Positions 2,699-44,273 of a stretch of 45,902 nt of DNA are shown here, one piece after another. The notes beneath the pieces were generated by a model. That model did not search any database and was not told the DNA's origin. It saw only the letters and a program-made list of their open reading frames with translations. The position numbers and the translations under genes were made by a program. This DNA comes from an uncultured archaeon (GTDB lineage: Archaea > Aenigmatarchaeota > Aenigmatarchaeia > QMZS01), in contig CAZLSF010000001.1 of assembly GCA_964562245.1 (NCBI GenBank), positions 1 to 45,902 of the forward strand. Reading direction: 5' to 3'. The stretch's first letter is position 1, and each line of letters begins with the position of its first letter.

Positions 2699-4486
2699 AT
2701 GAATCTAAAAAAATTACAGGAATTTCTCGGTTCTGGCGGGGATTTGGTTGAATTACCAGACTATTTTTCAATTATTGTGAATGAAAGAAAGTTTGAGTTT
2801 AGAAGAACTCCTAAGAAAGCTCAAAAATTGCTAAAATACCCAAGAGAAAAGTTAATGGAAGAAATAAAATGGCCCCAGAATGTGGGAACCTATGATATAG
2901 GAGATGTTGCAAACCCTGTTATGTTAATCTGCCCGTCGCAAGACAGGGAATTGCAAGAACATGCAATTTATGCAGGAGTGTGCGCAACAGGACCCTGTTT
3001 AACCCCAAGGGGAGTCGAACTCCTGATAACAAATACAATCTCAAACCCAAATATAAGATTTTTGATTCTTGCTGGAAGAGATTCAGGGCATTTAACTGGG
3101 GATTTAATTGAAAATTTAATATTGAACGGAGTTGATGAAAATAGAAAGGTAATAGGCACAAAGTGTCCGTCGTTCCCTTACCTGCCAAACCTGAGTTTAG
3201 AAGCAATAAACAAATTCAGGGAACAATTAGAGGTTATAAATTTGATTGGTGTTTTTGATCCCACTTTGATAACTCTGATAATAAGACTTTGCTTGCAGGA
3301 ACCAAGTAATGCTTATGAATTAACCTATGAAGAAAAAGTTTCACCTCTATTTAAGCAAATCAAGAACCCAAAGAAAATTACTCATACTTTATTTGATAAA
3401 GGAACTGAAAACAAAGAACCTATGGTGTTGTCTTATTCTTTAGTGGACTTGCAGTCCCTGCCTTATGAAGCATTTTCAACAACAGGAACCACGGTTTACG
3501 CTTCCACAGTCGAGGAAGCGCATAGAATACTTGTTGACTTTTTAAAAAGAGCCGGGGTGTGGGTAAAACAAGAAAGCAATAGGATGGGTCTGGATGTAAT
3601 AGCAACAACAATTGTTGTGGAAAATCTTGAGCAGGGTCTTTATCCAAAAAATTACAAACCTGTGGAATGGGTTGATTCTGATGAAAAAATGAAACAATAT
3701 TTAAAGGCTTACGGTGTGTGGAATTATTTAGTTCCATGGAGCAATGTTGTGTTTGATGAAAGTCTTGATAAAACAGTTCCTTCTATTCCTGACATGAAAT
3801 ATCTTTCTTATTCTTATGGAACCAGGATTACCGCAAAGGGAATGGATTCATGCAAAAAAGAAGAGAAAGAAGGAATCATAAAATTAGTGAAATCTTTTCA
3901 GGAAAAGTATTATGAAAAAGTTCCTGACTTTAAATCAATTCTTAATTTTTACCATGATTTAAAAGAGATTCAAAAACAAAGTTTTAATCAATTGCTGGCA
4001 GTTACCAAAGCAGGCTCCATTATTATTAAAGATAATATTACCGGGACTTACAGGCCTTATTTACAATTGCACGTTGCGGATGATTTAAGACCTATTGACC
4101 CGAGAAAAATGCATAATCCTTGTTATTGTATGTTTGTTCCTTTTTTCAGGAAAACTTATTATAGGGAATATAATAAAGATGGAGTTACACGCAGATTTTT
4201 AGTTCCTTCTTTAAATGGTGAAAAAGAAAAAGATTTAAAGTATGATTGGTTGTTTATGCCTTCAGCTTATTTAAGGGCTCATGACTGGTTTGCTTTTCCA
4301 GCGAATGTCCACGGATCTTTAGCCATGGGGAACTTTATATTGCAGTACCTTGAAAAAGAAACAGGGAAAAAAATTCCATGGGGTTGTTATTCACATCATG
4401 CTTCATCATTGCATCTTGTTGATTATTCTCTTGATAAAGACCTGATTGAAAAACTTAACAGGACTTTGCCTTCAGATAAAAATTGA
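2699..4486 (+). CDS. fusion protein: N-terminal MtrA-like (tetrahydromethanopterin methyltransferase subunit A / DUF4346-like) domain plus C-terminal thymidylate-synthase-like domain
   Basis: The N-terminal part aligns by eye with MtrA: WPQNVGTYDIGD..PVMLI...ATGPCLTPRGVELLITNTISNPNIRFLILAGRDSGHLTGD...NGVD. The C-terminal part carries ThyA core motifs: YSYGTRI, NPCYCMFVPFFR (the catalytic-Cys position of PCHxxxQFYV), YLRAHDWFAFPANVHG (RSxDxxLGxPFN) and SSLHLVDY (THLYxNH). Confidence 0.65.
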   Translation: MNLKKLQEFLGSGGDLVELPDYFSIIVNERKFEFRRTPKKAQKLLKYPREKLMEEIKWPQNVGTYDIGDVANPVMLICPSQDRELQEHAIYAGVCATGPCLTPRGVELLITNTISNPNIRFLILAGRDSGHLTGDLIENLILNGVDENRKVIGTKCPSFPYLPNLSLEAINKFREQLEVINLIGVFDPTLITLIIRLCLQEPSNAYELTYEEKVSPLFKQIKNPKKITHTLFDKGTENKEPMVLSYSLVDLQSLPYEAFSTTGTTVYASTVEEAHRILVDFLKRAGVWVKQESNRMGLDVIATTIVVENLEQGLYPKNYKPVEWVDSDEKMKQYLKAYGVWNYLVPWSNVVFDESLDKTVPSIPDMKYLSYSYGTRITAKGMDSCKKEEKEGIIKLVKSFQEKYYEKVPDFKSILNFYHDLKEIQKQSFNQLLAVTKAGSIIIKDNITGTYRPYLQLHVADDLRPIDPRKMHNPCYCMFVPFFRKTYYREYNKDGVTRRFLVPSLNGEKEKDLKYDWLFMPSAYLRAHDWFAFPANVHGSLAMGNFILQYLEKETGKKIPWGCYSHHASSLHLVDYSLDKDLIEKLNRTLPSDKN

Positions 4487-9018: not shown

Positions 9019-10581
9019 TTACCGTTCAAGAATGTCGAGATGAACTTTAAATTTGTTTTCCAGTTTATCAATTCCTTTCCCTCCTCTACCGATTAATTTT
9101 GCAATTATTTTTTTATTAACATAAATCCTAAAATCTGTTCCTGAAATATGTTCTACTGCAACATTTTTATCATACTTGCTGATCTCCTTTTTTATCTGCT
9201 TGATTTTTTTCCCCACTTCTTTTTCATCAAACTCTTCAATTGGAATAACAATTATTTCGTCCCCGAAAGAATATATTTCATACTCAAGTTTTCCTGTTTC
9301 AAATGATCTAACTTCTATAATAGGTCTTGCAAGGTCAGAATCTCTCATCCCTGTAGGAACTCTTACTATCAAATCCGTGGAATAAACTTCTTCAATTTTA
9401 CCGTCCTTTACAAAAATTATTGTATCCACAATATTATGAAGCATCCCTAGTTCAATTTTGTTGACAAATCTCTGGATTGAATCAATTGGTTGGGAAGCGT
9501 GAATTACACCAACCATTCCAACGCCTGCAAGTCTCAAATCACTGAAAATCTTAAAATCAAAAGAAGTTCTTATTTCATCAAAAATCGTGTAATCTGGTCT
9601 AACCAATAACAATATTTCTGCTGTTTTTGCAAAGGATTTTGCCAACGGGGCGTATTGGGTGATTTTTTCATTCACCTGTAAATCCCTTGGCTGTTCCATA
9701 GTCTTTACAATCTTATTCTGTTTCTGGTAAAATTCAGCCAGACTTGCGGCCAATGTTGATTTGCCGCTTCCTGGAGGACCTGAAATAAGAATGCCTCCAG
9801 CCTCATCGGTTATTCTCTTTTTAAGTTTCTCTGAAAGTTCATAATCATCAATATTCAATTTTGCTATTGGTCGCACAATAGTCATCTCCTTGTCATCTGA
9901 AAACGGAGGTCTTGTGATTGAGATTCTCATATCCTTTATCTGCAAAACCATGGCCCCGTATTCCTCAAATTCAACAAAAGCGAAATTCTTTCCCCGGATT
10001 TCCTTAAGTACGCTGGATGCAAGTTGTTCAAATTTTGATTTTGAAAGTTTCTCTTTTCCAACTTTTTTTAATTCCCATTTGCCGGGGTGTCCTCTTTTTG
10101 CTAAAGTAACGCAATTCACCTTAAAATGCAAAGACATCGTATCTTTCGTGAGTAATTCTAGAAATTCAAGCTCTGCTTTTTTATGCGCAGTTTTAATGAA
10201 TTTTACTTTTACTCCAAAAACTTCCGCAACAAGAGCCTGCACAAAATCTCTTGTGTATAATGTTGCTTTGTGTTTCTGCGCAAGTTCCCTTATCAATGCA
10301 TCAATTCTTCCTTTCTTTGCAAGTTTTATTTCTTCTATTGTTGGCTTCCTCCCCACAAATTCAAGTTTCACATTTCGTTTCCTTAGTTCTTTAATTTCTT
10401 CAAGACCTAAAAAACCAATTTCCTTTCCTTTGTTTGCCTGAGCCTGAAGTTCATCAATAACAAATTCAGGAATAAGAACCTTTACTTTTTTTAATTGTCC
10501 AATATCAATTAATTCAGTAAGCTTTTTTGAAATCAATACTGAAGTATCCGGCACAATTAATTCTTCTTTTCCAAAATTCAT
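9019..10581 (-). CDS. PIN-domain / PilT-family ATPase / KH-domain protein (COG1855-type)
   Basis: N-terminal PIN-like segment (IVPDTSVLIS...IPEFVIDELQ). Walker A is ILISGPPGSGKSTLA. The C-terminal KH motif is IAKLIGRGGKGIDKLE. Confidence 0.85.
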   Translation of the reverse strand: MNFGKEELIVPDTSVLISKKLTELIDIGQLKKVKVLIPEFVIDELQAQANKGKEIGFLGLEEIKELRKRNVKLEFVGRKPTIEEIKLAKKGRIDALIRELAQKHKATLYTRDFVQALVAEVFGVKVKFIKTAHKKAELEFLELLTKDTMSLHFKVNCVTLAKRGHPGKWELKKVGKEKLSKSKFEQLASSVLKEIRGKNFAFVEFEEYGAMVLQIKDMRISITRPPFSDDKEMTIVRPIAKLNIDDYELSEKLKKRITDEAGGILISGPPGSGKSTLAASLAEFYQKQNKIVKTMEQPRDLQVNEKITQYAPLAKSFAKTAEILLLVRPDYTIFDEIRTSFDFKIFSDLRLAGVGMVGVIHASQPIDSIQRFVNKIELGMLHNIVDTIIFVKDGKIEEVYSTDLIVRVPTGMRDSDLARPIIEVRSFETGKLEYEIYSFGDEIIVIPIEEFDEKEVGKKIKQIKKEISKYDKNVAVEHISGTDFRIYVNKKIIAKLIGRGGKGIDKLENKFKVHLDILER

Positions 10582-13592: not shown

Positions 13593-14195
13593 CTAAATTT
13601 TTCCATAGTGTTTCTTAACTTTTTCTGGTAAGTAAGAAAAACTTTTAATACCTTTCCACCAATTAGTTGAATTTTGTTCTTTTAAAATAGCTCCAAGCCT
13701 CTTTGCGGATTCTGTTTGCAACCTCTCAATTTGATTAACAATCCAATCTTCAGTTTCATATCCTTTTTCTAAGAGTTCTTTTGCGATTGTAGCCAATTCA
13801 AGTAAATCAGCATCTCTTGCAATAATACCTGCTTTATCTTCCGCATGTTCAAATTTCTCCCAAAGTTCAAGAATTTCCTTACCAATATCTCCAAGTTTAT
13901 TAGTTTGTTCTTTAACTGCATTTGCTTCATCGCCTTTTATATATCTGCTTGCAATCTTATTTATATCTCCAACCCTGCATTCTCCGATTTCGTGAAAAAC
14001 AGCAATTGTGCAGACTTTATAAGGGTCTTCATAATTTTCAAGTTTTGCCAAGATAAAAGCAATTTGTGCAGTTCTTAAAGTATGTTCTCCTATACTATCC
14101 CTATCTTTGACCCCTGCTAACCTTAATCCATCATGACTAATAAATCTCTGTTGCCCAAGTTCAAATATGAAATCCCATATATTTTCATCTTCCAT
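13593..14195 (-). CDS. HD-domain hydrolase, YfbR-like 5'-(deoxy)nucleotidase family
   Basis: Motifs: SIGEHTLRTAQIAFILA, then VFHEIGECRVGDI, then ARDADLLE. The usual HD dyad reads HE here. Confidence 0.75.
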   Translation of the reverse strand: MEDENIWDFIFELGQQRFISHDGLRLAGVKDRDSIGEHTLRTAQIAFILAKLENYEDPYKVCTIAVFHEIGECRVGDINKIASRYIKGDEANAVKEQTNKLGDIGKEILELWEKFEHAEDKAGIIARDADLLELATIAKELLEKGYETEDWIVNQIERLQTESAKRLGAILKEQNSTNWWKGIKSFSYLPEKVKKHYGKI

Positions 14196-14309
14196 GATTA
14201 ATTGATTTATTTTTTAAAATACTGGAGTCGCCCAAATCATAACAGATAAACGGTGTAAAATTTTATATTCAGATATATTATAAAACTATTTATAAATTTA
14301 CTGGTAATT

Positions 14310-15242
14310 TTATTCCAGTTTCTCTTTTAATGGGGGAACAATCTGTTTTTTTCTTGAAACAATATGTTCCGCAAACATTACATTGTTTTCTAAATTGCCA
14401 TTGAATATTTCTTTGGCGAGATTAATTTCTTCATCTCCCACCAGATATAAATAAGTGTTTTCTTTGATAATATCTACAACTCCAAAGAACAAATAATCCA
14501 AACCCTCTTTTTGTTTTTTGTTTTTCAACGCTTTGAGAATTTCTTCTTTCCTTTCATTGACAGTTTCAGGAACAACTGTTTCCCACACCCCGATTCCGAC
14601 TTTTGATTTTCCCATCTCAAAAAATTTATAATCTTTTTCAATTATTTCAGTTGTTTCAATTCCTTCCAGACTGGATTTTGCCTTAAACATTTCCATTGAA
14701 TAATTTTCCAGATTTAATCCTGCGATTTTATTTAACTCCTCAAGAATTGTTCTATCTTCATCTGTGGTGGTTGGTGAATTCAAAAACAAAGTATCTGAGA
14801 TGATTGCGGATGCCATCAGACACGCAACTTCCTGGGTTATTTCCAGATTTTTTTCTTTCAGTATTTTATATAATATTGTGCATGTACATCCGAGAGGTTC
14901 TATTCTTGCGTAAATTGGCTTTGAAGATTTTAATCCCCCGAGATTGTGATGGTCTATAACTGCAAAAAGATTGTTTTCATTTATGCCCTCGATAAGCTGG
15001 GTTGGTTCTGTAGTATCAACCAGAATAACATTTTCTTCATTGACTTTTTCCAATAATTCCGGTAATCTGATTGTTGGTTTTGCGATGTGATCTAAAACAA
15101 ATTTAGTTTCATTATTTAATTCTCCGGCTCTCTTTGCGACTGCGTGATGCCCGAACAGGGAATCGCTGTAATATGAAACTATCATTGAGGATACGATTGA
15201 ATCTGTATCCGGGTTTTTATGCCCTATTACTACAAGTTCCAT
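14310..15242 (-). CDS. ppaC: family II (Mn-dependent) inorganic pyrophosphatase, DHH-DHHA2
   Basis: 310 aa. Motifs: VIGHKNPDTDSIVSS, LVDTTE, VIDHHNLGG, SAIISDTL and a C-terminal DHHA2-like part. The length matches PpaC. Confidence 0.85.
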   Translation of the reverse strand: MELVVIGHKNPDTDSIVSSMIVSYYSDSLFGHHAVAKRAGELNNETKFVLDHIAKPTIRLPELLEKVNEENVILVDTTEPTQLIEGINENNLFAVIDHHNLGGLKSSKPIYARIEPLGCTCTILYKILKEKNLEITQEVACLMASAIISDTLFLNSPTTTDEDRTILEELNKIAGLNLENYSMEMFKAKSSLEGIETTEIIEKDYKFFEMGKSKVGIGVWETVVPETVNERKEEILKALKNKKQKEGLDYLFFGVVDIIKENTYLYLVGDEEINLAKEIFNGNLENNVMFAEHIVSRKKQIVPPLKEKLE

Positions 15243-18023: not shown

Positions 18024-18881
18024 ATGCTTCAGAATTATATTAAAAGAATTTATTTATCTTATGGTGAAATTGCAGAACAAATTTCACCTCATTTCAAATA
18101 TGTATTGGAAGACCTCAAAAAAAGCGGATTGAAATATACTCTTGAAGAATATCTTTCCCTTGCAATTTTTATATCCTTGATAGTTTTTGTGGTTGAACTC
18201 CCAATTATAACTCTAACTTTATCTTTTTTTATTCATGTTGTTTTTGCTATTTTACTTTCCTTTATTTTCTCTTTTGCAGGAGCAATAATCATTTTTTTTC
18301 TTTTTACCACTTATCCAAAAGCGCAGGTCAGTAATTTAGCCTCAAAAATAGACAAAGGCTTACCTTTCTCTGTTAGTTATATGACTGCAGCAGCCAGTTC
18401 TGATGCTCCACCAATCACAATTTTTAAAGCAATTACAAAGTTAGATGAATATCCTGAATTAAAAGATCAGGCTCAAAATGTGATAAGGGATGTAGATGCT
18501 CTTGGGATGGATATATTAAGTGCTTTGAGAAGGGAATCAAAAAGAACCCCATCTAAAGAATTTAGAGATTTACTCTTTGGAATAGAATCAACCATAAGTT
18601 CAGGCGCGGATTTAACTCTTTTTTTAAACAGCAAATCAATTTCTTTGTTCAAATCTTACCAGAGAAAAATTAAAGCTTATGCTAATACCTTATCTATGAT
18701 TATAGAAATGTATATTACAGTAGTAATCGTTGGTCCAATTTTTTTCACAATTTTATCAAGTGTAATGAGTATGATGGGTGGAGTTGAAAATGCACTTGCA
18801 ATGCAGGTTTTGGTTTCTTTTATATTAATGCCCGCGATATCTGTAATCCTTGCTTTTTATATCAATATGGCTTCACCATGA
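18024..18881 (+). CDS. type IV pilus/archaellum platform protein, single T2SSF domain (FlaJ/TadB-like, first half)
   Basis: TM-rich. The T2SSF cytoplasmic domain reads KGLPFSVSYMTAAASSDAPPITIFKAI...ELKDQAQNVIRDVDALGMDILSALRRESKRTPSKEFRDLLFGIESTISSGADL. Confidence 0.8.
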   Translation: MLQNYIKRIYLSYGEIAEQISPHFKYVLEDLKKSGLKYTLEEYLSLAIFISLIVFVVELPIITLTLSFFIHVVFAILLSFIFSFAGAIIIFFLFTTYPKAQVSNLASKIDKGLPFSVSYMTAAASSDAPPITIFKAITKLDEYPELKDQAQNVIRDVDALGMDILSALRRESKRTPSKEFRDLLFGIESTISSGADLTLFLNSKSISLFKSYQRKIKAYANTLSMIIEMYITVVIVGPIFFTILSSVMSMMGGVENALAMQVLVSFILMPAISVILAFYINMASP

Positions 18882-19852
18882 AAACCAAAAAATTTTTAAA
18901 AGGAAAACTAACAAAAACTCAAGAGATTTTATTATATTCTGCAATAGGATCTCTTGCTGTCATCCTATTTGGGCTGGTTCTTTCTTTATCATTTGCCAAC
19001 TTTAATATTTTGTTAAACTTTTTTGTTTTTGCGGTTTTTGTTTTTGTTTTACCGTTTTTCTTTTACAGATATATACATTTCCTGGAAATAAAAGACTGTG
19101 AAAAAAATATCCCTATATTTTTTACTGATTTGAAAGAAATTAAAAAGAGCGGAGTTTCTTTTCCAGAAGCAATTAAATCCTGTAAAGGCGATTATGGAAA
19201 ATTAAATAAATATATAGAAAAATTAAAAAAAGATATAAGCTGGGGAATTAGCATAGATTCCAGTTTAAAACAAATGCAAAATAGTTTGGGTGAAAGTAAA
19301 GTTTCATCAAGAGCTATTTCAACTTTATTAGAAACTTACAGGTCTGGAGGAAATATGGAAGATATTTTGGAAACTTTAATAACCTCTTTGCTCAAAATAA
19401 TGGAAAGTGAAAAAGACAAAAACTCAATGATGCAACAACATGTATTTATAATGTATGGTATTTTTTTGATGTTCGTTGGATTAATAATTGCTCTTGGAAA
19501 TTTTTTAATTCCTATGTTTTCTGAAATGGGAGGAACTGAAACAGGATTGGGTAATATTCAATTAATGCAAGCGAAGTCTCCTTGCCTTGCTTGTTATGAT
19601 CCTTTTTGTTATGGTCTTTGCGGTTATTATAACCTTATTGGAGGAATGTTTGGTTTTGGAGAGCCAAATTCACTGCCCGTATACTACAAATCCTTGTTTT
19701 TTACAATGGTTCTTATCCAGGGATTTTTTACCGGATTAATTGCCGGGCAGATCTCAGCAAAAAGTTGGTTGGAAGGAATAAAACATGGTTTGATTATGTT
19801 TTTCTTGGGATTATTCATTATAGTTATGGCAAATCTTGTTGGTTTCTTTTAA
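18878..19852 (+). CDS. type IV pilus/archaellum platform protein, single T2SSF domain (FlaJ/TadC-like, second half)
   Basis: Its start overlaps the upstream stop (ATGA at 18878-18881). The T2SSF domain reads IPIFFTDLKEIKKSGVSFPEAIKSC...ISWGISIDSSLKQMQ...TLLETYRSGGNMEDIL. A Cys-rich loop (SPCLACYDPFCYGLCGYY) sits between the C-terminal TM helices. Confidence 0.8.
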   Translation: MKTKKFLKGKLTKTQEILLYSAIGSLAVILFGLVLSLSFANFNILLNFFVFAVFVFVLPFFFYRYIHFLEIKDCEKNIPIFFTDLKEIKKSGVSFPEAIKSCKGDYGKLNKYIEKLKKDISWGISIDSSLKQMQNSLGESKVSSRAISTLLETYRSGGNMEDILETLITSLLKIMESEKDKNSMMQQHVFIMYGIFLMFVGLIIALGNFLIPMFSEMGGTETGLGNIQLMQAKSPCLACYDPFCYGLCGYYNLIGGMFGFGEPNSLPVYYKSLFFTMVLIQGFFTGLIAGQISAKSWLEGIKHGLIMFFLGLFIIVMANLVGFF

Positions 19853-19853
19853 A

Positions 19854-20405
19854 ATGATGAAAAATAAAGTTTGTAACTATAAATCTAAAAAGAGAATAAA
19901 ATTGATGGTTACAAAGTTTAAAGGACAGGTAAATATTTATTTTATTATCAGTACTATTTTGTTCGTCTCTCTTTCAATTTATTTAATTTCGATTATTATA
20001 GAAATATATCCAACACATCAAAATGATATATCTTCTGATGTTTGGTATTCTAAAGCATATTCAGTTTCTGAATTATTAATAAAAGATTCTGGTTATCCAA
20101 AAGACTGGGATGAAACTAATTTTGAAAGAATCGGGCTTGCTTCTGAACCTTACTCTTTAAATTCAACAAAAATTAATGAATTTGAGAAAATATGTAATTC
20201 AACAACAAACTTAACAAAAATTCAAAAATTTAGAGATTCTTTTGGATTGGAGAATAATAATTTGGTTGTTGAAATTAATTATTTAAACAATACAAATATA
20301 ATAAAATGTAAGCCTACGGGTGAAAAAGTTGGTGCAACAGCGCGTATAAAAAGAATTGCAACTCTAAATAATAAATTTGTAGAAGTGATTGTTTATGTCG
20401 GGTAA
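19854..20405 (+). CDS. pilin-like protein with class III signal peptide
   Basis: The ORF-track start at 19836 is TTG. ATG codons occur at 19854 and 19905. The sequence ...MVTKFKG|QVNIYFIISTILFVSLSIYLISIII is a basic-Gly cleavage motif followed by a hydrophobic helix. Confidence 0.55.
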   Translation: MMKNKVCNYKSKKRIKLMVTKFKGQVNIYFIISTILFVSLSIYLISIIIEIYPTHQNDISSDVWYSKAYSVSELLIKDSGYPKDWDETNFERIGLASEPYSLNSTKINEFEKICNSTTNLTKIQKFRDSFGLENNNLVVEINYLNNTNIIKCKPTGEKVGATARIKRIATLNNKFVEVIVYVG

Positions 20406-20469
20406 AAGATTTATTTTGACAACTGAAGTTTAGTTAAACTAAGTGATAATTTATAAATTAGTTGAGCTA

Positions 20470-20952
20470 ATGGAATTTATTATGAACAATGAGGAAAAAT
20501 TAATTTTGAGAGCAATTCTTTTGATAATTCCTTTAATCTTTCTCTCCTCTTTTCATTTTGAACTTCAAGTTTTTCACCAGGTTTTTTTTTCACATGTTAT
20601 CTGGTTTTTGGAGTTATTTGGTATCAAATCTCAAGTTCAAGGATATCAAATAATAACAAAAAATTTCTCGTCAATAATAACTTTTGACTGCACCGGATGG
20701 AAACAGTTTTATATTTTTTGCACCTTAATATTCTTACCTTTAAGAATTAAACTTTCAAGCAGACTTAAAGGTTTATTATTTCTAATTCCTTTATATTTTT
20801 ATAACATTTTTAGAGTGATTATTACAATTTATATTAGTTCCATTTCTTATTCCTGGTTTAAACCAGTTCATTATTTCTTATGGAATTTTTTGTTCCTTGC
20901 CCTGATCTTTATTTTCTGGTTTTTTTGGTATCAACACATGAAAAAGAATTAA
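20470..20952 (+). CDS. minimal archaeosortase/exosortase-family-like membrane protein
   Basis: Polytopic membrane protein. It has IITFDCTGWKQ (Cys codon at 20689-20691), then PLYFYNIFRVIITIY 41 residues later (Arg codon at 20812-20814), then KPVHYFLWNF (His codon at 20869-20871). This matches the xxCSG ... NxxR ... H layout of exosortase/archaeosortase cores. The track start at 20443 is GTG; I use the ATG at 20470 (an alternative ATG is at 20482). Confidence 0.6.
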   Translation: MEFIMNNEEKLILRAILLIIPLIFLSSFHFELQVFHQVFFSHVIWFLELFGIKSQVQGYQIITKNFSSIITFDCTGWKQFYIFCTLIFLPLRIKLSSRLKGLLFLIPLYFYNIFRVIITIYISSISYSWFKPVHYFLWNFLFLALIFIFWFFWYQHMKKN

Positions 20953-21045
20953 TTACAAATTATCCAGATAATTCTAGAAAAATCAAAATAAAAAATTCTC
21001 AAAAATGTTGGCAATTATAATTAAAAACAAAATAACAGAAAAATT

Positions 21046-24000
21046 ATGAGGAGGCATTATTTTAGTCAAAAACAGGCTTTATTAATATGTTTTACATTAA
21101 GTTTTTTTCTTCTTCCAGCAATATCATTAGCAACATGCTGTACTGAGTTACTATCTTCTTGTCCATATGGAAATGTGGATGGCAATAGTTGTAATAATGT
21201 TAGTATCGGATCTTATTGTGAAGGTGATGGTGAATGCGGAACAGATAATAATGCAAATAATTGTAATGTATGGGATTGGTACAAGCGGGTATGTTGTGAT
21301 AATGGTGTTAGTTGTTCTGTAGATGGAGATTGTTGTTCAGGCAATTGCGTGGATGGTTATTGCTGTGATTCTGCCTGCAATGGTGCTTGTGAAGCCTGCA
21401 ATGTAGCGGGACATGAAGGAACTTGCACAGATGATCATTCTTTATGTAGTGGAACAATTTCTTCCTGCTATTGTAGTGGTGGAGTTTGCCAACCTTGTAC
21501 TGACCCAGGAGGTTGCAGTTATGCAACTTGTATAGGTCATACTTGCGGAACTGCAGATTATGGGACATCTCATGAATGCAATTCAGCTTGGAAATGTTCT
21601 ACATCTACAGGGGATGGTAACTACGGAGTTGGAAGCGGAAATTACAAATGCCAAGGATATTGCGATGGGTCTGGGAATTGTGATTACGCTGGAAACTGCT
21701 ATAATTGCAATGACGATAATTATTATTATTGCGAAACAGGAAATAATAAATATTACCAGGATTATGATTGCTCTGGTGGAACTTGTGTAAAAGACACTCC
21801 TTCTTTTCGAAAAGATTGTGATGATTATGACGATGATAATTGTTGGTTAGTTTGTGATACTGGAACTGGAGATATAGATAGGTGGTGTGATGATTGGTAT
21901 TGCAATAGTGGAACATGTAAAGATTCTGGAAATAACTGGCTCAGAGATAATCCTTATAGTGATTGTTCAGATACAGCAAGTGATAATGATGGAGGAGATA
22001 AACCAAAGACATCAGGAACTTGCACAGATTATGAACTCTGTACCTCTGGAGATACTTCCTGTCCCTCCACAGATTATCCAGATAATTGTGCCTCTACAAC
22101 ACATTTAGAAGAATATTATCCTTACTCCAATGATTGCACTTCAAAAGATTATTATTGCAGTGATTTTGAAGTTGCAGCAACAGACTCCTATGGAGATGAT
22201 CCTACCTACACAGAAACTTGCTATGGTGGAATAGGGGCTTCTTGTTCTTCTAACCAATTTGTAACCTCTTCTCAAAGTGATTTTACAGATCACTGTACCG
22301 GAACTTGCGGAACAGGGATAGATTCTTGTTATTTTATAGAATACTATCCTGCTGATTCAGGAGATGCTTGCTCAGGGAATGATTACTGCAAACCAAAAAA
22401 TTATGATGCAGATCATGAAAGCAACACTTGCAATGCATGTGGATTAAATTGGAATCTTGATTGTTCCTTTGGGGATTGCTCTCCTTCTGAATCTTCAAGC
22501 AAAGAGGTCGGTACAACTTACACTTATAATTACTGTTGTGGGGATGATGCAAGTGAATATGCAATAACTTGTTCCTGTAACTTAAATTCCTGTTCTTCTG
22601 ACAGCACAGATGCCTGCTGCGCAAATTCAGATGATTGTGTCTGGGCAGGTGGGTGTTATTTAAATGGAAATACTACCGACATAGATTCTGATGGAATAGA
22701 TGAATATTGTAAAGGTAATGAAAATAAATGGTATGCCTATCCAAATATTACTTCAATTTCTATAGATAAATCCCCAATAGACAGAGATGATGAAGTAGAT
22801 AAATTTACACCTGACACTGAAATAAAAATTACAGCAGAAATTTATGATCAAGATAATAACGACAGGGATAAAGTTTATATAACTATTTACGAACCAGATG
22901 GAGTAACAATTGCAAAAGACCAAAGTGGAACATCTATAAATTCAAAACTTATGATCTGTTCTGATACAAATTCAAATCATTGGAGTTGCTATTATAATTA
23001 CAACCCAGAAGATGGTTCTCCTATTAGAGATTATGATGTAAAAATAAAAGCTGTTGATAACGAGGGTTTGGAAGATACAAAAACAGAAAGTAATTTATTT
23101 AAAGTTGAAGATATTTATTTAACTAATATGAATCACTATGGAACAACAAAAGATTTGCACATAACAGGAACAGCAAAATATACAACTTATGATACTACAG
23201 TCTCCGGGGCAAATGTAAAATGCTATGCTGAAGACAAAATTTGTTCAACAACCACAGATGGTGGTGGAAACTTTGATTGTAATATAGGGGAACTAAACAA
23301 AAATTTTGCACAGTATAATACAATAAAAACAAACACTTTTATCTGCGAGGTTATGGATATTTATAATATTGCGGGTAGTAGGACTTATAATATAACTATC
23401 GGATTGCGGGCTACAACTCACACCTGGAATGACACAACCCTTTATCATGATGAAACAGTAAGTTTTAATGTTACTTTTAAAAATGTTGGGGATTTAACTT
23501 TTGCAATGGATGACTTATATTGGGAAATCAGTTCTGAAAATGGAACCAACCCGGAAATAAACGAAGATTGTCATAACACAGGCTGGGTAGATGCATGTGG
23601 ATATTTAGGGAAATATGAAGGAGATCCGCATAATTCTTGTGGATGTTATATTCAGTTTGACCAAAACTTGGTTCCTGGAAACACAGTTACTTATTCTGGT
23701 TCCTGGAAAGCAAAATATCATGAATTTGGAGATTATAATTTTAGTGTTTGGGTAGAGTTTCCAGATAATGAAACTGGTTTTACAAATATCGTTGCCGGAC
23801 AAAAAATAAAGACAATTAAAATATTAGATAAATCGCCAGTAAATCTAACCTTTATGTTTGCTTTGCCTTCCCCTGTTGATAGAGATAAAGAAACATCCAA
23901 GACAAATGATAATATTACAATAAGAGTCAATGCAACTGATTATGTTGATGGAGTTCTTGGCGATAATGATGAATTAGAGCAATATTCTACAATTTGGGTG

Positions 24001-25821
24001 AAAAGTGATCAAAACAATAATTGGATGATCTGCGAAAATGTAACAATGAACCAGATTCCTTATCATAATGCATATTATTACGGGAACTGCACTTGGAACC
24101 CACCTAATGATATGTCTGATGTTGATTTAGGTAATTTTAGTGTTAAGTTCAAAGTTCTTGGGTATGGAAGTTATCATGATATTGTAGGGGAAGGTTACAA
24201 TATTTCTGATTACTCTGAAAATACAGACAAATTTGTTGTTGAAGATATTGATATATCAAATATTGCTTGGTCCTTTGGAAACACAACAGATTTAATTTTT
24301 ATAGGAAATGCAACCTACCTTTCAAATAATCTAAGAATTAACAATATAACAAATCAAACTTGCAGCCAGCCCATAATTTTAGATATTCCTGATGGAAATG
24401 AAAATACAAGAGAAAATATAAATCCGCCAGATTCAAGACTTTGTGGGATTAATTCTTTTGCGCAAGATATAACTTGCACTGTAATAAATGGAAATTTTAG
24501 TTGTTATGTCAGAAATATTAAGCTGAATGATACAACAGTTACTTTTTCCTATATTTTAACTGATGAAAAAAATATTTCAGGAAACGAAGACCTAACGATC
24601 AATTTAAACGGAACAATAGATGATTTTATCAATATAAGTGATCCGGATGGATTTGTAAATATTTATCAACCAATTAATTATACAATAAATTTCTCAAACA
24701 CAGGAAACATTGGATGGTTTGGAGAGATTTCTAATCAAACAAGAATAAAAATCTATTCTCCTGCTGGAGAAAATCCTGTAATTCCCTCGCAAGAGCATAT
24801 TTCTTTAGATTGTGATAACAATAGTTCCTGGGTGAATTTGATGAATGGAACAACCAGTAATTTTTCGCATTTCTTGGGTCATTCTTATTATGTTCTGGGA
24901 AAATATAATTATATAACAAATTTAAGTTATTTCTGGTCTGATTCTTTACATAGTATAAATTTCTCTATTACAACAGGAGGAAAAACAAACTACACGGTTG
25001 CAGCAATAGATATTACAGATTATAATTTACCCAACAAAGTTGTTAGAGGAAACCAGATTATAGGAAAAGCAAAGGGATATTTTGTTGGTTCAATGGATAT
25101 AGGTTATTGGGAAGAAATTCAAGGAGATGCATTTAAAGTTACAAACAACACAACAAATGCAATATATTGGGTTGAGAAATGGAATAAAACTTCAAAAATA
25201 GGAACAGAAATTCCAGAAACAAACATGACCTGGAATCCTGGTTTTTGGGAAGGTAAAATAAATACCTTTGATTTAAGTTGTGATGATGAAACAACAGTTC
25301 ATAGAGTTTATTTCCTGATTAACTGGACAGATTTTAATATTTATACCCCTTATGTAAAAGGAGAATTTAAATCAGAATTCTGGCCTTATTTTTATCAAAA
25401 TTTAAGTGTGATCTGTACCTCAAGAGAATTATTTGAAGTTAATCCAGAAATTACGAATGTTGCTCTAGGAACAGAAAATAGAGATATTTATAATATTTTT
25501 ATTGAAAATCCAAGTGACAGTCCAGTTGATATAAACCTGACAATAAATTGTGATGATTACCCTGATGCTGTAAATTGGGTAAATGAAAATCATTGGACTA
25601 TTCATATTCCTGCAGAGAGTTCTACTTCAAAAATAGTTACCTTAGACGAGGCTCCAAGAGTTGGTAACTATGAATTTTCTGTATCGGTAAGAGGAGACCT
25701 AAGATATGACAAAAAAGTCTGGTTGAATATTTTCTCAGAAGCGTTGGGTTCTGATAGTTTAGTTTATCTTCTCTTATTATTTTTCATGACTTCTATTTTA
25801 TTGATTAAAAGAAAATTATGA
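21046..25821 (+). CDS. giant (1591 aa) secreted Cys-rich, heavily sequon-decorated surface protein with C-terminal anchor/sorting-like tail
   Basis: Signal peptide MRRHYFSQKQALLICFTLSFFLLPAISLA. There are 71 Cys between residues ~31 and 560 by hand count. One DIDSDGIDEY Ca-binding-type motif is present. Two large beta-rich super-repeats follow. I count more than 30 N-x-S/T sequons. The C-terminus reads ...SEALGSDSLVYLLLLFFMTSILLIKRKL. Confidence 0.9.
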   Translation: MRRHYFSQKQALLICFTLSFFLLPAISLATCCTELLSSCPYGNVDGNSCNNVSIGSYCEGDGECGTDNNANNCNVWDWYKRVCCDNGVSCSVDGDCCSGNCVDGYCCDSACNGACEACNVAGHEGTCTDDHSLCSGTISSCYCSGGVCQPCTDPGGCSYATCIGHTCGTADYGTSHECNSAWKCSTSTGDGNYGVGSGNYKCQGYCDGSGNCDYAGNCYNCNDDNYYYCETGNNKYYQDYDCSGGTCVKDTPSFRKDCDDYDDDNCWLVCDTGTGDIDRWCDDWYCNSGTCKDSGNNWLRDNPYSDCSDTASDNDGGDKPKTSGTCTDYELCTSGDTSCPSTDYPDNCASTTHLEEYYPYSNDCTSKDYYCSDFEVAATDSYGDDPTYTETCYGGIGASCSSNQFVTSSQSDFTDHCTGTCGTGIDSCYFIEYYPADSGDACSGNDYCKPKNYDADHESNTCNACGLNWNLDCSFGDCSPSESSSKEVGTTYTYNYCCGDDASEYAITCSCNLNSCSSDSTDACCANSDDCVWAGGCYLNGNTTDIDSDGIDEYCKGNENKWYAYPNITSISIDKSPIDRDDEVDKFTPDTEIKITAEIYDQDNNDRDKVYITIYEPDGVTIAKDQSGTSINSKLMICSDTNSNHWSCYYNYNPEDGSPIRDYDVKIKAVDNEGLEDTKTESNLFKVEDIYLTNMNHYGTTKDLHITGTAKYTTYDTTVSGANVKCYAEDKICSTTTDGGGNFDCNIGELNKNFAQYNTIKTNTFICEVMDIYNIAGSRTYNITIGLRATTHTWNDTTLYHDETVSFNVTFKNVGDLTFAMDDLYWEISSENGTNPEINEDCHNTGWVDACGYLGKYEGDPHNSCGCYIQFDQNLVPGNTVTYSGSWKAKYHEFGDYNFSVWVEFPDNETGFTNIVAGQKIKTIKILDKSPVNLTFMFALPSPVDRDKETSKTNDNITIRVNATDYVDGVLGDNDELEQYSTIWVKSDQNNNWMICENVTMNQIPYHNAYYYGNCTWNPPNDMSDVDLGNFSVKFKVLGYGSYHDIVGEGYNISDYSENTDKFVVEDIDISNIAWSFGNTTDLIFIGNATYLSNNLRINNITNQTCSQPIILDIPDGNENTRENINPPDSRLCGINSFAQDITCTVINGNFSCYVRNIKLNDTTVTFSYILTDEKNISGNEDLTINLNGTIDDFINISDPDGFVNIYQPINYTINFSNTGNIGWFGEISNQTRIKIYSPAGENPVIPSQEHISLDCDNNSSWVNLMNGTTSNFSHFLGHSYYVLGKYNYITNLSYFWSDSLHSINFSITTGGKTNYTVAAIDITDYNLPNKVVRGNQIIGKAKGYFVGSMDIGYWEEIQGDAFKVTNNTTNAIYWVEKWNKTSKIGTEIPETNMTWNPGFWEGKINTFDLSCDDETTVHRVYFLINWTDFNIYTPYVKGEFKSEFWPYFYQNLSVICTSRELFEVNPEITNVALGTENRDIYNIFIENPSDSPVDINLTINCDDYPDAVNWVNENHWTIHIPAESSTSKIVTLDEAPRVGNYEFSVSVRGDLRYDKKVWLNIFSEALGSDSLVYLLLLFFMTSILLIKRKL

Positions 25822-26429
25822 ACCATAGAAAATTTAAGGGGGTGTCGCCAATAATTTCTTCTATTTTAATAATTGGAATTCTTGCGATAATTACTGGAAT
25901 TGCTTATCAATGGGGAATGCCAATGATTCAAAAAAACATTGATATAACAACTTTAAATAAAGCCGAAAATTTTCTAAGGAAATTAGATAATTCAGTCTCT
26001 GATATTGCAAAAACGGGAGGAACAGAGGAATTGATTTTTAATCTACCCGGAGAAATTAATATAAATCCAGAGAATAATACAATAAAATTCTCTCTAAAAA
26101 CCAGTGGGAGTATTTATATGCAAGGAGGTATTGTTTGTTTTAGCAGGAATTGCAATTTAACAGAGGGCACTTGGGGGAAAGATTCTTATTCTGTTATTAA
26201 CGCCCAAGTAGATCAGTTTGAAGAATACGCAACGATAACGACTTACTCAATCATATATAGAAATCTCACAAGAGGAGAAGGATTTAATAAAAAAATATAT
26301 CTTCTGGATATTGTAACTCCCGGAAATGCAACCATTGTTGGTTCTGAAAATTCCAGAATTTCAATTGAAAAAATTGGTGAAGAGAGGGGGGATGTAACAA
26401 AAACTATTATCAAATTAGATATCAAATAA
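25818..26429 (+). CDS. archaeal type IV pilin-like protein (class III signal peptide, DUF361-type N-terminus)
   Basis: MNHRKFKG|VSPIISSILIIGILAIITGIAY. The start overlaps the stop of the giant gene (ATGA at 25818-25821). Confidence 0.8.
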   Translation: MNHRKFKGVSPIISSILIIGILAIITGIAYQWGMPMIQKNIDITTLNKAENFLRKLDNSVSDIAKTGGTEELIFNLPGEININPENNTIKFSLKTSGSIYMQGGIVCFSRNCNLTEGTWGKDSYSVINAQVDQFEEYATITTYSIIYRNLTRGEGFNKKIYLLDIVTPGNATIVGSENSRISIEKIGEERGDVTKTIIKLDIK

Positions 26430-26529
26430 AAAATTAAGTTGTAAACTTAAATAAAGTTTTCAGAAATTAATCCAATAAAATGTAGTATTAGATGAAAATG
26501 TGAGTTAGTTATAAACTATAAAATAATTT

Positions 26530-27834
26530 ATGGTGATTAAAGAATCTACTAAAAGCAATAACAAAGGATTTGTTAGGGTTATAGAAATTGTAATCTTTTC
26601 TTTTATTTTGTTTGTCTTACTCATGCCAACTTTCTTTTATTATTCTAATATAAATGATTGGAACAAAGCAAATGGTTTGTTGTTGTGTAATGATTTGCTT
26701 TATTCAATTGAAAAAAACAAAACTTTTGATAATGTTTTAAATCCTTTTGTTGAAAATTCAGATTTTTCTGGAGAACATCAAAAAGATTTGGAGTTGCTGA
26801 AAAATATTACTGATAGAGTCTTTCCGGTTGCTGTTGATTTTGACTATGAGATAAAAAATATCGCTCCTTACGAAATTTCTATTGGGTGTAATTGCACTCA
26901 GAGTCAGATAGACTGGCTAAATAAAGAAATTTTGACTCCAAGTTATCCAACAGTAAAATTCCCAATTAAACAGGTAAGTTTGAATAATTTATCCTCCGAA
27001 TATAATTTGTTTATTATTTTTGATAAAGTTAATTTATCCAAACCAAACATTAAATCAAATATTACCGCAATGCTAAAGAAAGGAAAAGGTTTTGTCTTAA
27101 TCAGAAATTTTTTATCTGATCCTGATCAATTTACAAAAGAACTCTTTGGTATTGATTTTTCTGGTGTTGGTTTCTCCACAAATAATTTGAGTTTTAATAA
27201 TTTATCAACTCCAAAAACAGCAGGAATTGCAAAGAGATTTATAAACAATCTAATTAGGATTAATCTATCTAATGGAAAAGGTATCTTGCAACTCAGAAAT
27301 GAAAGATTTGAAATAAATGCAACAAAAAATCACGTAAATATATCTGATTGCTCACTTTCTCAAGGAGATAGTTGCATACTTTCTGGAATTGCGAACATAA
27401 CTTTATTTCAAATTGATCCTCTTGATATAGATTGGGTGAGGGCAGATTTTGAGGAGTGGATAGACTTAAAAATTTCAGGAACTTCAAATCCGAGAGATTA
27501 TAGTTTTTATGACACTTTCCCGCTAAATGTTAATAAAAATAATTATACTATCTTATCATTTGGAACAAATACTGCTACAAATGCAAAAATTTTAAAAAAA
27601 TATTCTAAATCCTATGAAAATGAACCAAGGACTTTCTGGATTTATGATTATAACCAAACAAAAGATGACTTAAATTTACTTTTAAAAACAGGAATTATCT
27701 GGACCTCTGGAGAACACTATTTTGTATTTGACAAAAAAATTACAGATGAAAGAAATTATTGCCAGCATTTTTATTCAGGTCTAGACGAAAATAATATACC
27801 TTTTTTAGTTAAATTATATTTCTTTGGTTATTAA
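26530..27834 (+). CDS. large pilin-like/pseudopilin-like protein (434 aa) with N-terminal class III-like signal
   Basis: MVIKESTKSNNKG|FVRVIEIVIFSFILFVLLM. Gly-Phe followed by a Glu at +6 resembles bacterial prepilin sites. The rest is unrecognised and sequon-rich. Confidence 0.5.
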   Translation: MVIKESTKSNNKGFVRVIEIVIFSFILFVLLMPTFFYYSNINDWNKANGLLLCNDLLYSIEKNKTFDNVLNPFVENSDFSGEHQKDLELLKNITDRVFPVAVDFDYEIKNIAPYEISIGCNCTQSQIDWLNKEILTPSYPTVKFPIKQVSLNNLSSEYNLFIIFDKVNLSKPNIKSNITAMLKKGKGFVLIRNFLSDPDQFTKELFGIDFSGVGFSTNNLSFNNLSTPKTAGIAKRFINNLIRINLSNGKGILQLRNERFEINATKNHVNISDCSLSQGDSCILSGIANITLFQIDPLDIDWVRADFEEWIDLKISGTSNPRDYSFYDTFPLNVNKNNYTILSFGTNTATNAKILKKYSKSYENEPRTFWIYDYNQTKDDLNLLLKTGIIWTSGEHYFVFDKKITDERNYCQHFYSGLDENNIPFLVKLYFFGY

Positions 27835-41969: not shown

Positions 41970-42389
41970 TTACTGAATTATTGGGATAAATTGAGTTTTC
42001 CCCTTGCACTCGACAACCTCCACCATAAATCCCTTTATATCCTCATAATTATTCTCTATTATATCTTTATCAAAAGTTATCTCAGTTGGAGTATTTGCTT
42101 CAAAAGGACCTTTTATTTTTTTTATAAAAGCTTTTTGATTAGTGCCAAGAAAAATATAAAGATTATACGCATTTACGCTGGTTCCTATGTTTTGCACAGT
42201 AAAGGTACCCGCATCATAATCATAGTTGTAATAAGTCAAATCCAATTTACTGCAGGTTTCCATAGATCCGAGTTCTGATTGCGTGTAGTTCATAGCCCAA
42301 GTTCCTACAATTGCCGCAATGGCTACACTAATAACTATTAGAAGTACGCTTGCGACTATAGGAGAAATTCCCTTTAACCCTTGCAACAT
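41970..42389 (-). CDS. archaeal type IV pilin-like protein (class III signal peptide, DUF361-type)
   Basis: MLQGLKG|ISPIVASVLLIVISVAIAAIVGTWA. Confidence 0.8.
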   Translation of the reverse strand: MLQGLKGISPIVASVLLIVISVAIAAIVGTWAMNYTQSELGSMETCSKLDLTYYNYDYDAGTFTVQNIGTSVNAYNLYIFLGTNQKAFIKKIKGPFEANTPTEITFDKDIIENNYEDIKGFMVEVVECKGKTQFIPIIQ

Positions 42390-42727: not shown

Positions 42728-43885
42728 ATGGACATATACGAAAGATTGAGGAAAAGAAAAATATCCGAGAGCAATAAAAGAGTTATTAAGCAATTTATTA
42801 AGAATAGAGAAAGTGAAGGAATACAGGAAAGGAGATTATCAAAGTATGAATATATGTTGTCTGTTTTTGCGGGAGTTGTTAAAAAGGATATTTCTAAAGT
42901 TGGTGAAAAAGATCTAAGAAAATTCACAACATGGTTATTGGAACAGAAATTATCAGAGAACACAAAAATAACTTTTAAGATAGTTATAAAAACTTTCTTT
43001 AGAAACTTTGTATTTGGTGGTGAACTGCCAAAAAAGTTTAGAGAAATTCTGAAAGCAAAAAGGATTACAAACAATCTAACTCCTCAGGATTTATGGTCTA
43101 TGGAAGATATACAAAAATTACTTAATCAAACTCAAAATATAAGAAGAAAGGCTATGATAATGGTCTTATTTGAGGGGGGATTGAGAGCTGGTGAATTGCT
43201 ATCTCTTCGTGTAGGTGATATTGAGTTTACAAATTGGGGTTGCAGGATTTTTGTTCCGGAATCAAAGACAAAAACAAGAAGTCTGCCTTTATTTAATTCT
43301 GCTCCTTTGTTAAGTCAATATTTAAGAACTCATCCTAAAAGAGAAGATAAAACTATTTCCCTTTGGCTTAATGATAAAGGTAAACCTATGAAATATCCTG
43401 CTTTAAGAAAAATGCTAAATGATTTAAAAGATAAGGCAGGTTTCCAAAATAAGAGAATATTTGCTCATTTACTCAGGCACTCAAAACTTACAGTTTTATC
43501 TCAGCAACTAAAATCAGCAGAGTTAAAAGAATTTGCAGGATGGACTTCCATAAAAATGGTGGATACTTATTCTCACTTAAATTGTGAAAATGTAGAAGAG
43601 AAACTATTAGAACAACAGGGAATTAAAATTAAGAGTAAAAAAGAAATATATAATCCAATAAAGTGTCCGAGATGCAATCAACAAAATGAATATAATGCTA
43701 AATACTGTAATTCCTGTGGGTTAATTCTTGGAAAAACAGCAATAGAGGAAGTGAAGAAAATAGAAACTTTAGATAACCTAAGTACTGAAGCCTTAAAGAA
43801 AGAAAATGTTCGGGAAGCCTTTAAAGAAGCAATAAAGGAATTGATTAAAGAGAATCCTGATATTTTGAAAGGATTAAATTTATAA
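42728..43885 (+). CDS. tyrosine recombinase/integrase with C-terminal zinc ribbon
   Basis: Catalytic set: GGLRAGE (Arg), SKTKT (Lys hairpin), HLLRHS (HxxR), GW, and MVDTYSHL (Tyr). The C-terminal extension carries CPRCNQQNEYNAKYCNSCG. The gene starts 60 nt after the tRNA-Thr(UGU). Confidence 0.9.
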   Translation: MDIYERLRKRKISESNKRVIKQFIKNRESEGIQERRLSKYEYMLSVFAGVVKKDISKVGEKDLRKFTTWLLEQKLSENTKITFKIVIKTFFRNFVFGGELPKKFREILKAKRITNNLTPQDLWSMEDIQKLLNQTQNIRRKAMIMVLFEGGLRAGELLSLRVGDIEFTNWGCRIFVPESKTKTRSLPLFNSAPLLSQYLRTHPKREDKTISLWLNDKGKPMKYPALRKMLNDLKDKAGFQNKRIFAHLLRHSKLTVLSQQLKSAELKEFAGWTSIKMVDTYSHLNCENVEEKLLEQQGIKIKSKKEIYNPIKCPRCNQQNEYNAKYCNSCGLILGKTAIEEVKKIETLDNLSTEALKKENVREAFKEAIKELIKENPDILKGLNL

Positions 43886-43896
43886 ATATTGTGTTA

Positions 43897-43980
43897 CAAA
43901 GAACTACTTTGAACTACAAATGTATAGCATTGTATTACTTTTGGATACAAAAGTATTTAAAATAAATACTTTGTAATACA
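43897..43980. promoter_or_regulatory. candidate operator/promoter region upstream of the RHH gene
   Basis: Direct repeat gaactac at 43901-43907 and 43911-43917. Inverted repeat tgtattac (43931-43938) / gtaataca (43973-43980). An inner imperfect palindrome aaagtattt-aaaat-aaatacttt overlaps an AT-rich TATA-like stretch. Confidence 0.3.
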
Positions 43981-43985
43981 TATTT

Positions 43986-44273
43986 ATGGCAAATAAAAAG
44001 AGTATATCTCTAAGGTTGGATGAAGAAGAAATTAAAAAAATAAGAGATATTGCAGAAAAAGAAGGAGTAAAAAGAAGTTTTATAATTAAAAAAGCAATAA
44101 CTCAGTTTATTGAGAACTATGGAAAAGAGTCTCAAGATGAAAAAAAGATATATGAAAAAATCAGTGAAATTGAAAGAAGGTATGGATCAGTTTTAACAAG
44201 AACAAATATCCTCAAAACACAAGTTGATAATATTATCAAAAGAATGGATAAAATAGAGAAAAATGGAAAATAA
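43986..44273 (+). CDS. ribbon-helix-helix (CopG/Arc/MetJ-like) DNA-binding protein
   Basis: KKSISLRLDEEEIKKIRDIAEKEGVKRSFIIKKAITQFIENY is a beta strand followed by two helices. The C-terminal half looks like a coiled coil. Confidence 0.8.
   Translation: MANKKSISLRLDEEEIKKIRDIAEKEGVKRSFIIKKAITQFIENYGKESQDEKKIYEKISEIERRYGSVLTRTNILKTQVDNIIKRMDKIEKNGK

Follow-up and report, generated by a model that had tools for sequence, protein, structure and literature searches.

A short-form exosortase/archaeosortase family protein of an Aenigmatarchaeota archaeon and the neighbouring giant protein as its candidate substrate

Results and discussion

A 45,902-nucleotide stretch of contig CAZLSF010000001.1 (assembly GCA_964562245.1, positions 1 to 45,902; hereafter the window), from an uncultured archaeon of the Aenigmatarchaeota, contains an open reading frame (ORF) at 20470-20952 (+) whose product, a short-form protein of 160 amino acids (aa), is almost certainly, judging from its sequence, a member of the exosortase/archaeosortase family. 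This protein is referred to below as the sortase. The gene that follows encodes a 1591-aa secreted, cysteine-rich giant surface protein that ends in a putative tripartite sorting signal. We narrowly favour the combined proposal that the ORF encodes a family member and that the giant protein next to it is the substrate.

Family membership and conserved residues

The family core profile TIGR04178 (exo_archaeo) matches the sortase at 37.6 bits, above its curated cutoff of 23, with residues 70-153 aligned to profile positions 3-93 of 97. The same profile is matched at E ≤ 0.001 by 13 of 13 members of the close clade and by all 61 wider relatives. Pfam model PF09721 (Exosortase_EpsH) scores 24.9 bits, and its alignment of residues 15-153 to model positions 110-252 of 254 indicates that the sortase is the equivalent of a full-length exosortase's catalytic C-terminal half and lacks the N-terminal helices. 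A first-pass annotation, made from the DNA letters alone, had proposed the family on the basis of candidate Cys, Arg and His residues. Searches with the exosortase/archaeosortase core models bore this out, TIGR04178 passing its cutoff and PF09721 falling just under its gathering score, as did the conservation of the three residues, which constitute the catalytic triad suspected for the family (Haft preprint 10.1101/2023.06.07.544157).

The ORF is uninterrupted and ends in a stop codon, and translation of both strands demonstrated many stops on the strand opposite 20470-20952. Three start codons are candidates (GTG 20443, ATG 20470 and ATG 20482). Nine of 12 homologs start at the position of Met5, and the homologs thus favour 20482, from which the sortase would have 156 aa. 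The translation contains the motifs that the annotation had picked out: FDCTGW from residue 72, with the putative nucleophile Cys74 (codon 20689-20691); an NxxR motif formed by Asn112 to Arg115 (codons 20803-20814; NIFRV from residue 112), which places Arg115 41 residues after Cys74; and PVHYF from residue 132, with His134 (codon 20869-20871) a further 19 residues on. All three lie on the + strand.

Twelve close homologs (155-181 aa, 47-99% identity) share the same ends, and two of them are named "exosortase/archaeosortase family protein" by JGI. Cys74, Asn112, Arg115 and His134 are invariant in the close-clade alignment (A1, 13 sequences). When 1.84 billion cluster representatives were searched with a profile, 604 wider relatives emerged at E ≤ 0.001, and the best 149 of these have a median length of 182 aa (interquartile range 171-195). 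A wider alignment (A2) holds 61 sequences at a mean column identity of 24%, the relatives being 20-58% identical. Here Asn112, Arg115 and His134 are present in 61 of 61 sequences and Cys in 59, the remaining two having Ser. Spacing is kept as well, with 41-42 residues from Cys to Arg in 50 of the 61 and 19-20 from Arg to His in 60. The check on residue conservation that the annotation had called for therefore came out in its favour at both depths. The two distant relatives with Ser in place of the nucleophile (P0049, DSTGW; P0090, DSTAW) keep Asn, Arg and His, and could be Ser-nucleophile variants of the family.

The sortase clade is from Ca. Aenigmatarchaeota (DPANN), and the sortase is the sole member of the family encoded within the window.

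Predicted fold and topology

The sortase is almost wholly hydrophobic helix, with five long hydrophobic helices, and the first impression that the protein consists nearly entirely of transmembrane helices is upheld, as regards helix content, both by hydrophobicity and by structure prediction. The AlphaFold2 model built from 61 sequences (predicted local distance difference test, pLDDT, 96.0; predicted template modelling score, pTM, 0.87) places helices at residues 7-27, 33-49, 72-88, 95-125 and 127-159, and a short beta element (55-69) just ahead of the Cys. An earlier model from 13 sequences was weak (pLDDT 69.7). Foldseek searches of the PDB with both models found no analogue (best E 1.8 for the 13-sequence model and 0.72 for the 61-sequence model; template modelling score ≤ 0.33), and neither sequence-profile search nor fold search of the PDB revealed a solved exosortase or archaeosortase structure.

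Lysine plus arginine residues average 4.1 per sequence at the N-terminus, 2.9 in the loop at 93-101 and 3.8 at the C-terminus. We infer that these three positively charged regions are cytoplasmic, and that Cys74 (where helix 3 starts), the outer half of helix 4 (with Arg115) and His134 (where helix 5 starts) face outward. Under this positive-inside topology the status of helix 33-49 is ambiguous, as a cytoplasmic N-terminus and a cytoplasmic loop fit together only if the chain crosses the membrane an even number of times ahead of residue 93.

Size and named subfamilies

Short members of the family are well represented among curated models. NCBIfam profile lengths are 156 for ArtB, 150 for ArtD, 153 for ArtE, 166 for ArtF, 158 for XrtH, 150 for XrtM, 168 for both XrtX and XrtY, and 167 for pacearchaeosortase. 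The first-pass annotation had presented the sortase as a stripped-down protein of about half the size of characterised archaeosortases. This is right in comparison with ArtA and does not hold as a novelty, short subfamilies being curated and relatives of 150-200 aa abundant.

The best-scoring named subfamily is pacearchaeosortase (NF033505), which reaches 32.5 bits with the sortase vs a cutoff of 80 and is matched by 11 of 13 clade members (best E 8.2e-8). Scores for the others are further down: XrtX (NF046081) 28.0 bits vs 170, XrtH (TIGR04177) 22.1 vs 86, ArtE (TIGR04124) 18.9 vs 95, ArtB (TIGR04144) 17.6 vs 150 and XrtM (TIGR04300) 11.4 vs 125. The ArtA model TIGR04125 (cutoff 75 bits) gives no match to the sortase even at E ≤ 10. 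Because no named-subfamily cutoff in NCBIfam is reached by the sortase, by its clade or by the nearest out-group representatives, we conclude from these profile scores that the sortase represents a subfamily that has no name, within a large population of short family members most of which are likewise unnamed.

The giant protein and its C-terminal tail

The gene for the candidate substrate (21046-25821, +) starts 93 bp downstream of the sortase gene, and its orthologs also adjoin sortase genes. The encoded protein of 1591 aa begins with a Sec-type signal peptide (about 21046-21135); 5.8% of its residues are Cys, 72 of which fall within the first 600 aa. Neither Pfam nor NCBIfam detected a domain in the giant protein or its orthologs. 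The protein ends in a signature, a transmembrane helix and a basic cluster (...DKKVWLNIFSEALGSDS-LVYLLLLFFMTSILLI-KRKL), and the putative tripartite C-terminal sorting signal, consisting of VWLNIFSEALGSDS, the helix LVYLLLLFFMTSILLI and KRKL, is encoded at 25717-25818 (+). This is the standard layout of tripartite sorting signals (PMC6098224; Haft preprint 10.1101/2023.06.07.544157).

Three complete tails are available, those of the window (VWLNIFSEALGSDSLVYLLLLFFMTSILLIKRKL) and of the related loci L014 (VYLNIFSEALGSNNLVYLLLLFSAVSILLIKRNYEQ) and L004 (VWLNIFSQAIGNNSILYLILLFSFVCILLIRKL). They share the candidate signature V[WY]LNIFS[EQ]A[LI]G followed by a transmembrane helix and a basic cluster, and their identity is 0.53-0.59 vs 0.21-0.30 for the body of the protein. 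The three carriers are orthologous over the C-terminal ~680 aa at 41% identity, which is the only part that they share: the orthologs comprise 847 aa in L004 (10007-12550, -), 1591 aa in the window and 2329 aa in L014 (10504-17493), and the 847-aa protein lacks the Cys-rich N-terminal part (1.8% Cys).

Because the tail was found in a single ortholog group, each time beside the sortase, its distribution suggests that the sortase and the giant protein are a dedicated one-enzyme/one-target pair. By the criteria of Haft, a sorting system is recognised as dedicated when its enzyme and target are regularly adjacent (preprint 10.1101/2023.06.07.544157).

Several searches were made for further carriers of the tail. 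An alignment of the three tails (A4) found none among proteins at E ≤ 10, and a search of metagenome contigs for related loci also added none. The C-terminal 250 aa of the giant protein likewise returned no match in a protein search, despite the near-identical copy in L017 and the orthologs in L004 and L014; the nulls of this protein search, that with A4 included, do not amount to an absence of homologs. The signature V[WY]LNIFS[EQ]A.G, written as a degenerate DNA pattern, gave 7 matches, which were rejected as chance matches outside ORFs. A heuristic scan of the fetched loci for C-terminal transmembrane helices with basic tails returned the giant orthologs and, from L004, a single unrelated tail; it also brought up a P-type ATPase-like protein in L012, which was rejected as a tail carrier. 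The unrelated L004 tail belongs to a secreted protein (13834-15132, -) whose gene lies, within the cluster, two genes upstream of the one that bears the tail, and consists of a different transmembrane helix and KRK (…ENILYVVAVIVSLILISLLGYLFMKRK), with no VWLNIFS signature.

Gene neighbourhood in related loci

Loci were dereplicated by sortase sequence. The giant gene follows the sortase gene in the window and its counterpart L017, in L014 (2329 aa) and in L001/L009, where the gene is cut by the contig end before the tail. In L004/L005, a 59%-identical sortase adjoins the 847-aa giant ortholog and a 203-aa pilin-like gene on the opposite strand, and no T2SSF genes are present. A wider block, formed by a split pilus platform protein, a pilin-like ORF (166-189 aa) and the sortase, is found in six loci (window/L017, L001/L009, L012, L013, L014 and L015). 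The annotation had placed the sortase directly upstream of a protein with a sorting-signal-like tail; this is so in the window, and the adjacency is conserved in only part of the clade.

The pilus-like gene cluster

In the window the sortase and giant genes are part of a cluster that runs from 18024 to 27834 on one strand (+), with spacings that range from a 4-bp overlap to gaps of 100 bp. The cluster opens with the two halves of a split platform protein of the ArlJ/FlaJ/UpsF type (T2SSF). The N-terminal half (18024-18881, +; PF00482, 46.8 bits) aligns to positions 12-248 of 555 of the ArlJ/FlaJ model, and the C-terminal half (18878-19852, +; PF00482, 47.0 bits) to positions 265-432 of 484 of UpsF and 184-393 of 465 of ArlJ. 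The two ORFs overlap by 4 bp, and the split is kept in L001/L009, L012, L013, L014, L015 and L017.

A 166-aa pilin-like protein follows (19905-20405, +), recognised by its sequence and conserved position, with a class III signal-like N-terminus (KFKG followed by QVNIYFIISTILF). In the closest relatives (L001/L009, L012, L013, L014, L015 and L017) this ORF always lies directly upstream of the sortase. Beyond the giant gene, whose stop it overlaps by 4 bp, begins the gene for a 203-aa pilin-like protein (25818-26429, +; KFKG followed by VSPIISSILIIGILAI, also given as KFKG followed by VSPIISSILIIG). This protein shares 54% identity with the L004 ORF that occupies the equivalent place behind the tail-bearing protein, and has only sub-threshold matches to UpsA and to archaellin/pilin N-terminal models. 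The last gene of the conserved cluster (26530-27834, +) encodes a 434-aa protein with a pilin-like N-terminus (NNKG followed by FVRVIEIVIFSF), and is a gene that L014 and L017 also have behind the 200-aa gene.

Together with an ORF outside the cluster (41970-42389, -), these make four ORFs in the window with class III prepilin-like N-termini, in which K-G is followed by a hydrophobic stretch. The 41970-42389 product alone passes the Pfam model Pilin_N (26.1 bits); the three at 19905-20405, 25818-26429 and 26530-27834 have no significant match to a Pfam or NCBIfam profile. No pilus ATPase or prepilin peptidase was found in the cluster when the window was searched. A gene for a protein with PIN and T2SSE-like ATPase domains (9019-10581) lies 8 kb away and was rejected as a part of the cluster.

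Proposed mechanism

In the mechanism that we propose, the sortase would act as a short-form cysteine endopeptidase/transpeptidase and would recognise the giant protein by its C-terminal tail. After Sec-dependent export, the signature would sit just above the transmembrane helix on the outside of the cell, on the side to which Cys74, Arg115 and His134 are predicted to face. Cys74 would attack near the signature, between signature and helix, to form a thioester acyl-enzyme, and the helix with its basic tail would be released. An amine, probably that of a membrane lipid head group, would then resolve the thioester, with the result that the giant protein is bound covalently at the cell surface. 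A thioester mechanism of this kind has been proposed for ArtA, in a model that is explicitly speculative (PMC7157517). Lipid re-anchoring rather than plain cleavage is tentative here and drawn by analogy. Family membership and residue conservation are observed; substrate, cleavage site and acceptor are presumed.

The identification of the giant protein as the substrate is, in our judgement, somewhat better founded than its denial, and a number of observations weigh against it and, in one instance, against the family assignment on which it depends. The PF09721 score of 24.9 bits is 0.8 bit under the gathering score of 25.7. Conservation of the tail ranks only 69th of 885 windows along the protein, so that the tail is not its most conserved segment, and because all three carriers are orthologs its similarity may be ordinary ortholog conservation. 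No non-orthologous carrier was found by protein, contig or DNA-pattern search, and the tails match none of the curated NCBIfam CTERM models, including VPXXXP-CTERM. Three polar residues separate the signature from the helix, whereas signals of the PGF and PEP types abut the helix directly. Adjacency is not universal, a tail-bearing neighbour being present in about half of the dereplicated loci of the clade: L012 and L015 keep the block of two T2SSF genes, pilin-like gene and sortase with no giant gene after it, the sortases of L006/L011 and L007/L008/L010 lie beside GAPDH with no tail-bearing neighbour, and the 1032-aa neighbour of the L002 sortase lacks a transmembrane tail. These loci without a tail-bearing neighbour are all incomplete contigs, and a target may lie further off.

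Alternative explanations

The partial adjacency is open to other readings. The giant tail might be a permanent transmembrane anchor, with the sortase acting on unlinked substrates and its position beside the giant gene coincidental or co-regulatory. About half of the clade loci have no adjacent tail-bearing gene, the conservation of the tail is not exceptional, and C-terminal transmembrane helices with basic tails occur on other proteins such as that of L004 13834-15132, all of which would fit such an anchor. We nevertheless think it improbable, as adjacency recurs in four dereplicated loci over a range of sortase identity of 59-99% and survives the rearrangement of strand and neighbours in L004, and ~200 kb of related loci showed no further class of candidate tail. 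The real partner of the sortase could instead be the type IV pilus-like machinery, in the processing or attachment of pilins or in linking a protein to the pilus, with the adjacency to the giant gene secondary. The block of platform, pilin-like and sortase genes, found in six loci, is indeed more widespread than the adjacency of sortase and giant genes, two loci have it without a giant gene, and two pilin-like ORFs follow the giant gene in the window. The pilin-like proteins, however, carry N-terminal signals of the class III type and no C-terminal tripartite tail, whereas characterised family members act on C-terminal tripartite signals (PMC6098224). In addition, the L004 sortase travels with a tail-bearing protein and has no T2SSF genes nearby, and other clade members have neither pilus genes nor a tail-bearing protein nearby. 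We therefore give a primary role in the pilus machinery little credence. A scheme that joins the two partners, in which the sortase works within a type IV pilus-like apparatus, cuts the C-terminal anchor of the giant Cys-rich protein, taken as an adhesin, and transfers this protein to a pilin-like subunit or to a lipid at the pilus base, is a long shot.

Pairing of the sortase with the giant protein also leaves a choice as to what the enzyme would do. It might be a plain endopeptidase, or sheddase, that cuts the anchor so that the giant protein is released or passed on, with no transpeptidation to lipid. Even for ArtA, whether cleavage and lipid attachment are one step is unresolved (Haft preprint 10.1101/2023.06.07.544157), and no PssA/PssD-type genes were seen in the window, which is a fraction of the genome. 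Against this, the set of Cys, Arg and His matches that of sortase transpeptidases (Haft preprint 10.1101/2023.06.07.544157), and in an episymbiont an adhesin-like protein of 1591 aa would more plausibly stay on the cell than be released; we regard cleavage alone as unlikely. As for the enzyme itself, the ~110 N-terminal positions of PF09721 that are missing might suggest a full-length archaeosortase that has decayed to a truncated pseudogene fragment or to a catalytically inactive remnant. This is effectively refuted: the catalytic residues are invariant, the 12 homologs share both ends and are uniform in length (155-181 aa), the 149 best relatives have a median of 182 aa, the ORF upstream is a separate conserved gene, curated short subfamilies exist, and the AlphaFold2 model is compact and confident.

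Comparison with known systems

The experimental work found in the literature concerns ArtA of Haloferax volcanii (HVO_0915; TIGR04125) only; none was found there on short-form or DPANN members of the family. PMC9263693, citing Abdul Halim 2018, names Cys173, Arg214 and Arg253 as critical residues of Haloferax ArtA. The annotation thus gave C173 and R214, and their 41-residue spacing, correctly. The likeness of ArtA to the system reported here lies in the superfamily signature region, the Cys-Arg distance of 41 and a target with signature, transmembrane helix and basic cluster; the third critical residue differs, being Arg253 in ArtA vs His134 as the third invariant residue here. The ArtA model also has 271 positions vs the 160 aa of the sortase, which lacks the N-terminal helices, and the giant tail is without the PGF motif of PGF-CTERM targets. 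The predicted targets of ArtA number from one to 52 per genome, with nine in H. volcanii (PMC6098224), whereas a single adjacent target is indicated here.

Pacearchaeosortase (NF033505) is closer in size and source, as a DPANN family with a profile of 167 positions that aligns end to end (residues 10-153 on positions 3-144). It differs in host (Pacearchaeota vs Aenigmatarchaeota), and the sortase scores 32.5 bits vs its cutoff of 80. ArtB (the partner of VPXXXP-CTERM), ArtE, XrtH, XrtX and XrtM likewise have a catalytic core of 150-170 residues and align weakly to the sortase over their full length, but the scores are far below the cutoffs and the giant tail matches no curated CTERM. The dedicated pairs described by Haft resemble the present one in that enzyme and target genes are consecutive or nearby, instead of numerous targets being spread over the genome (preprint 10.1101/2023.06.07.544157); here, in contrast, adjacency is seen in only about half of the loci, and, the loci being contig fragments, the arrangement may yet be one-to-many. 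Gram-positive sortases (SrtA and class C) offer an analogy only. They share the Cys/His/Arg chemistry, the tripartite signal and the association with pilus loci, but have an unrelated fold with no homology, and the pili here would be type IV-like, with an ArlJ/UpsF platform and pilins with class III signals, and not of the kind that sortases polymerise.

Size, motifs and the dedicated-pair arrangement thus all have precedents, and knowledge of the family is unchanged. What is new is modest, namely an unnamed Aenigmatarchaeota subfamily, a candidate tail without a curated model, and a type IV pilus-like cluster beside the giant protein. Attachment of DPANN episymbionts to their hosts is presumed to run through their surface proteins. 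The sortase and the giant tail provide a concrete candidate pair of enzyme and substrate, and both the anchoring of Cys-rich proteins of 1591-2329 aa and the travel of the sortase with type IV pilus genes are relevant to DPANN cell biology. Were the giant protein in fact an adhesin transferred to the pilus, it would be displayed there for attachment to host cells. Archaea would then have a counterpart, without homology, to the pilus tip adhesins that sortases attach, and an archaeosortase would be linked to type IV pili for the first time.

Remainder of the window

The window has a G+C content of 31.7% and otherwise carries typical archaeal housekeeping genes. No tRNA genes were found in its 45.9 kb by ARAGORN, and no Rfam families at the gathering threshold. 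A 595-aa protein (2699-4486, +) contains an MtrA (tetrahydromethanopterin S-methyltransferase subunit A) domain (117.8 bits); the genome that carries this MtrA-domain protein is apparently a small one of DPANN type. A tyrosine recombinase gene close to the window's 3' end (42728-43885, +; Phage_integrase, 81.6 bits) is followed by a small unannotated ORF (43986-44273, +), and the region 42728-44273 may be the edge of an integrated element.

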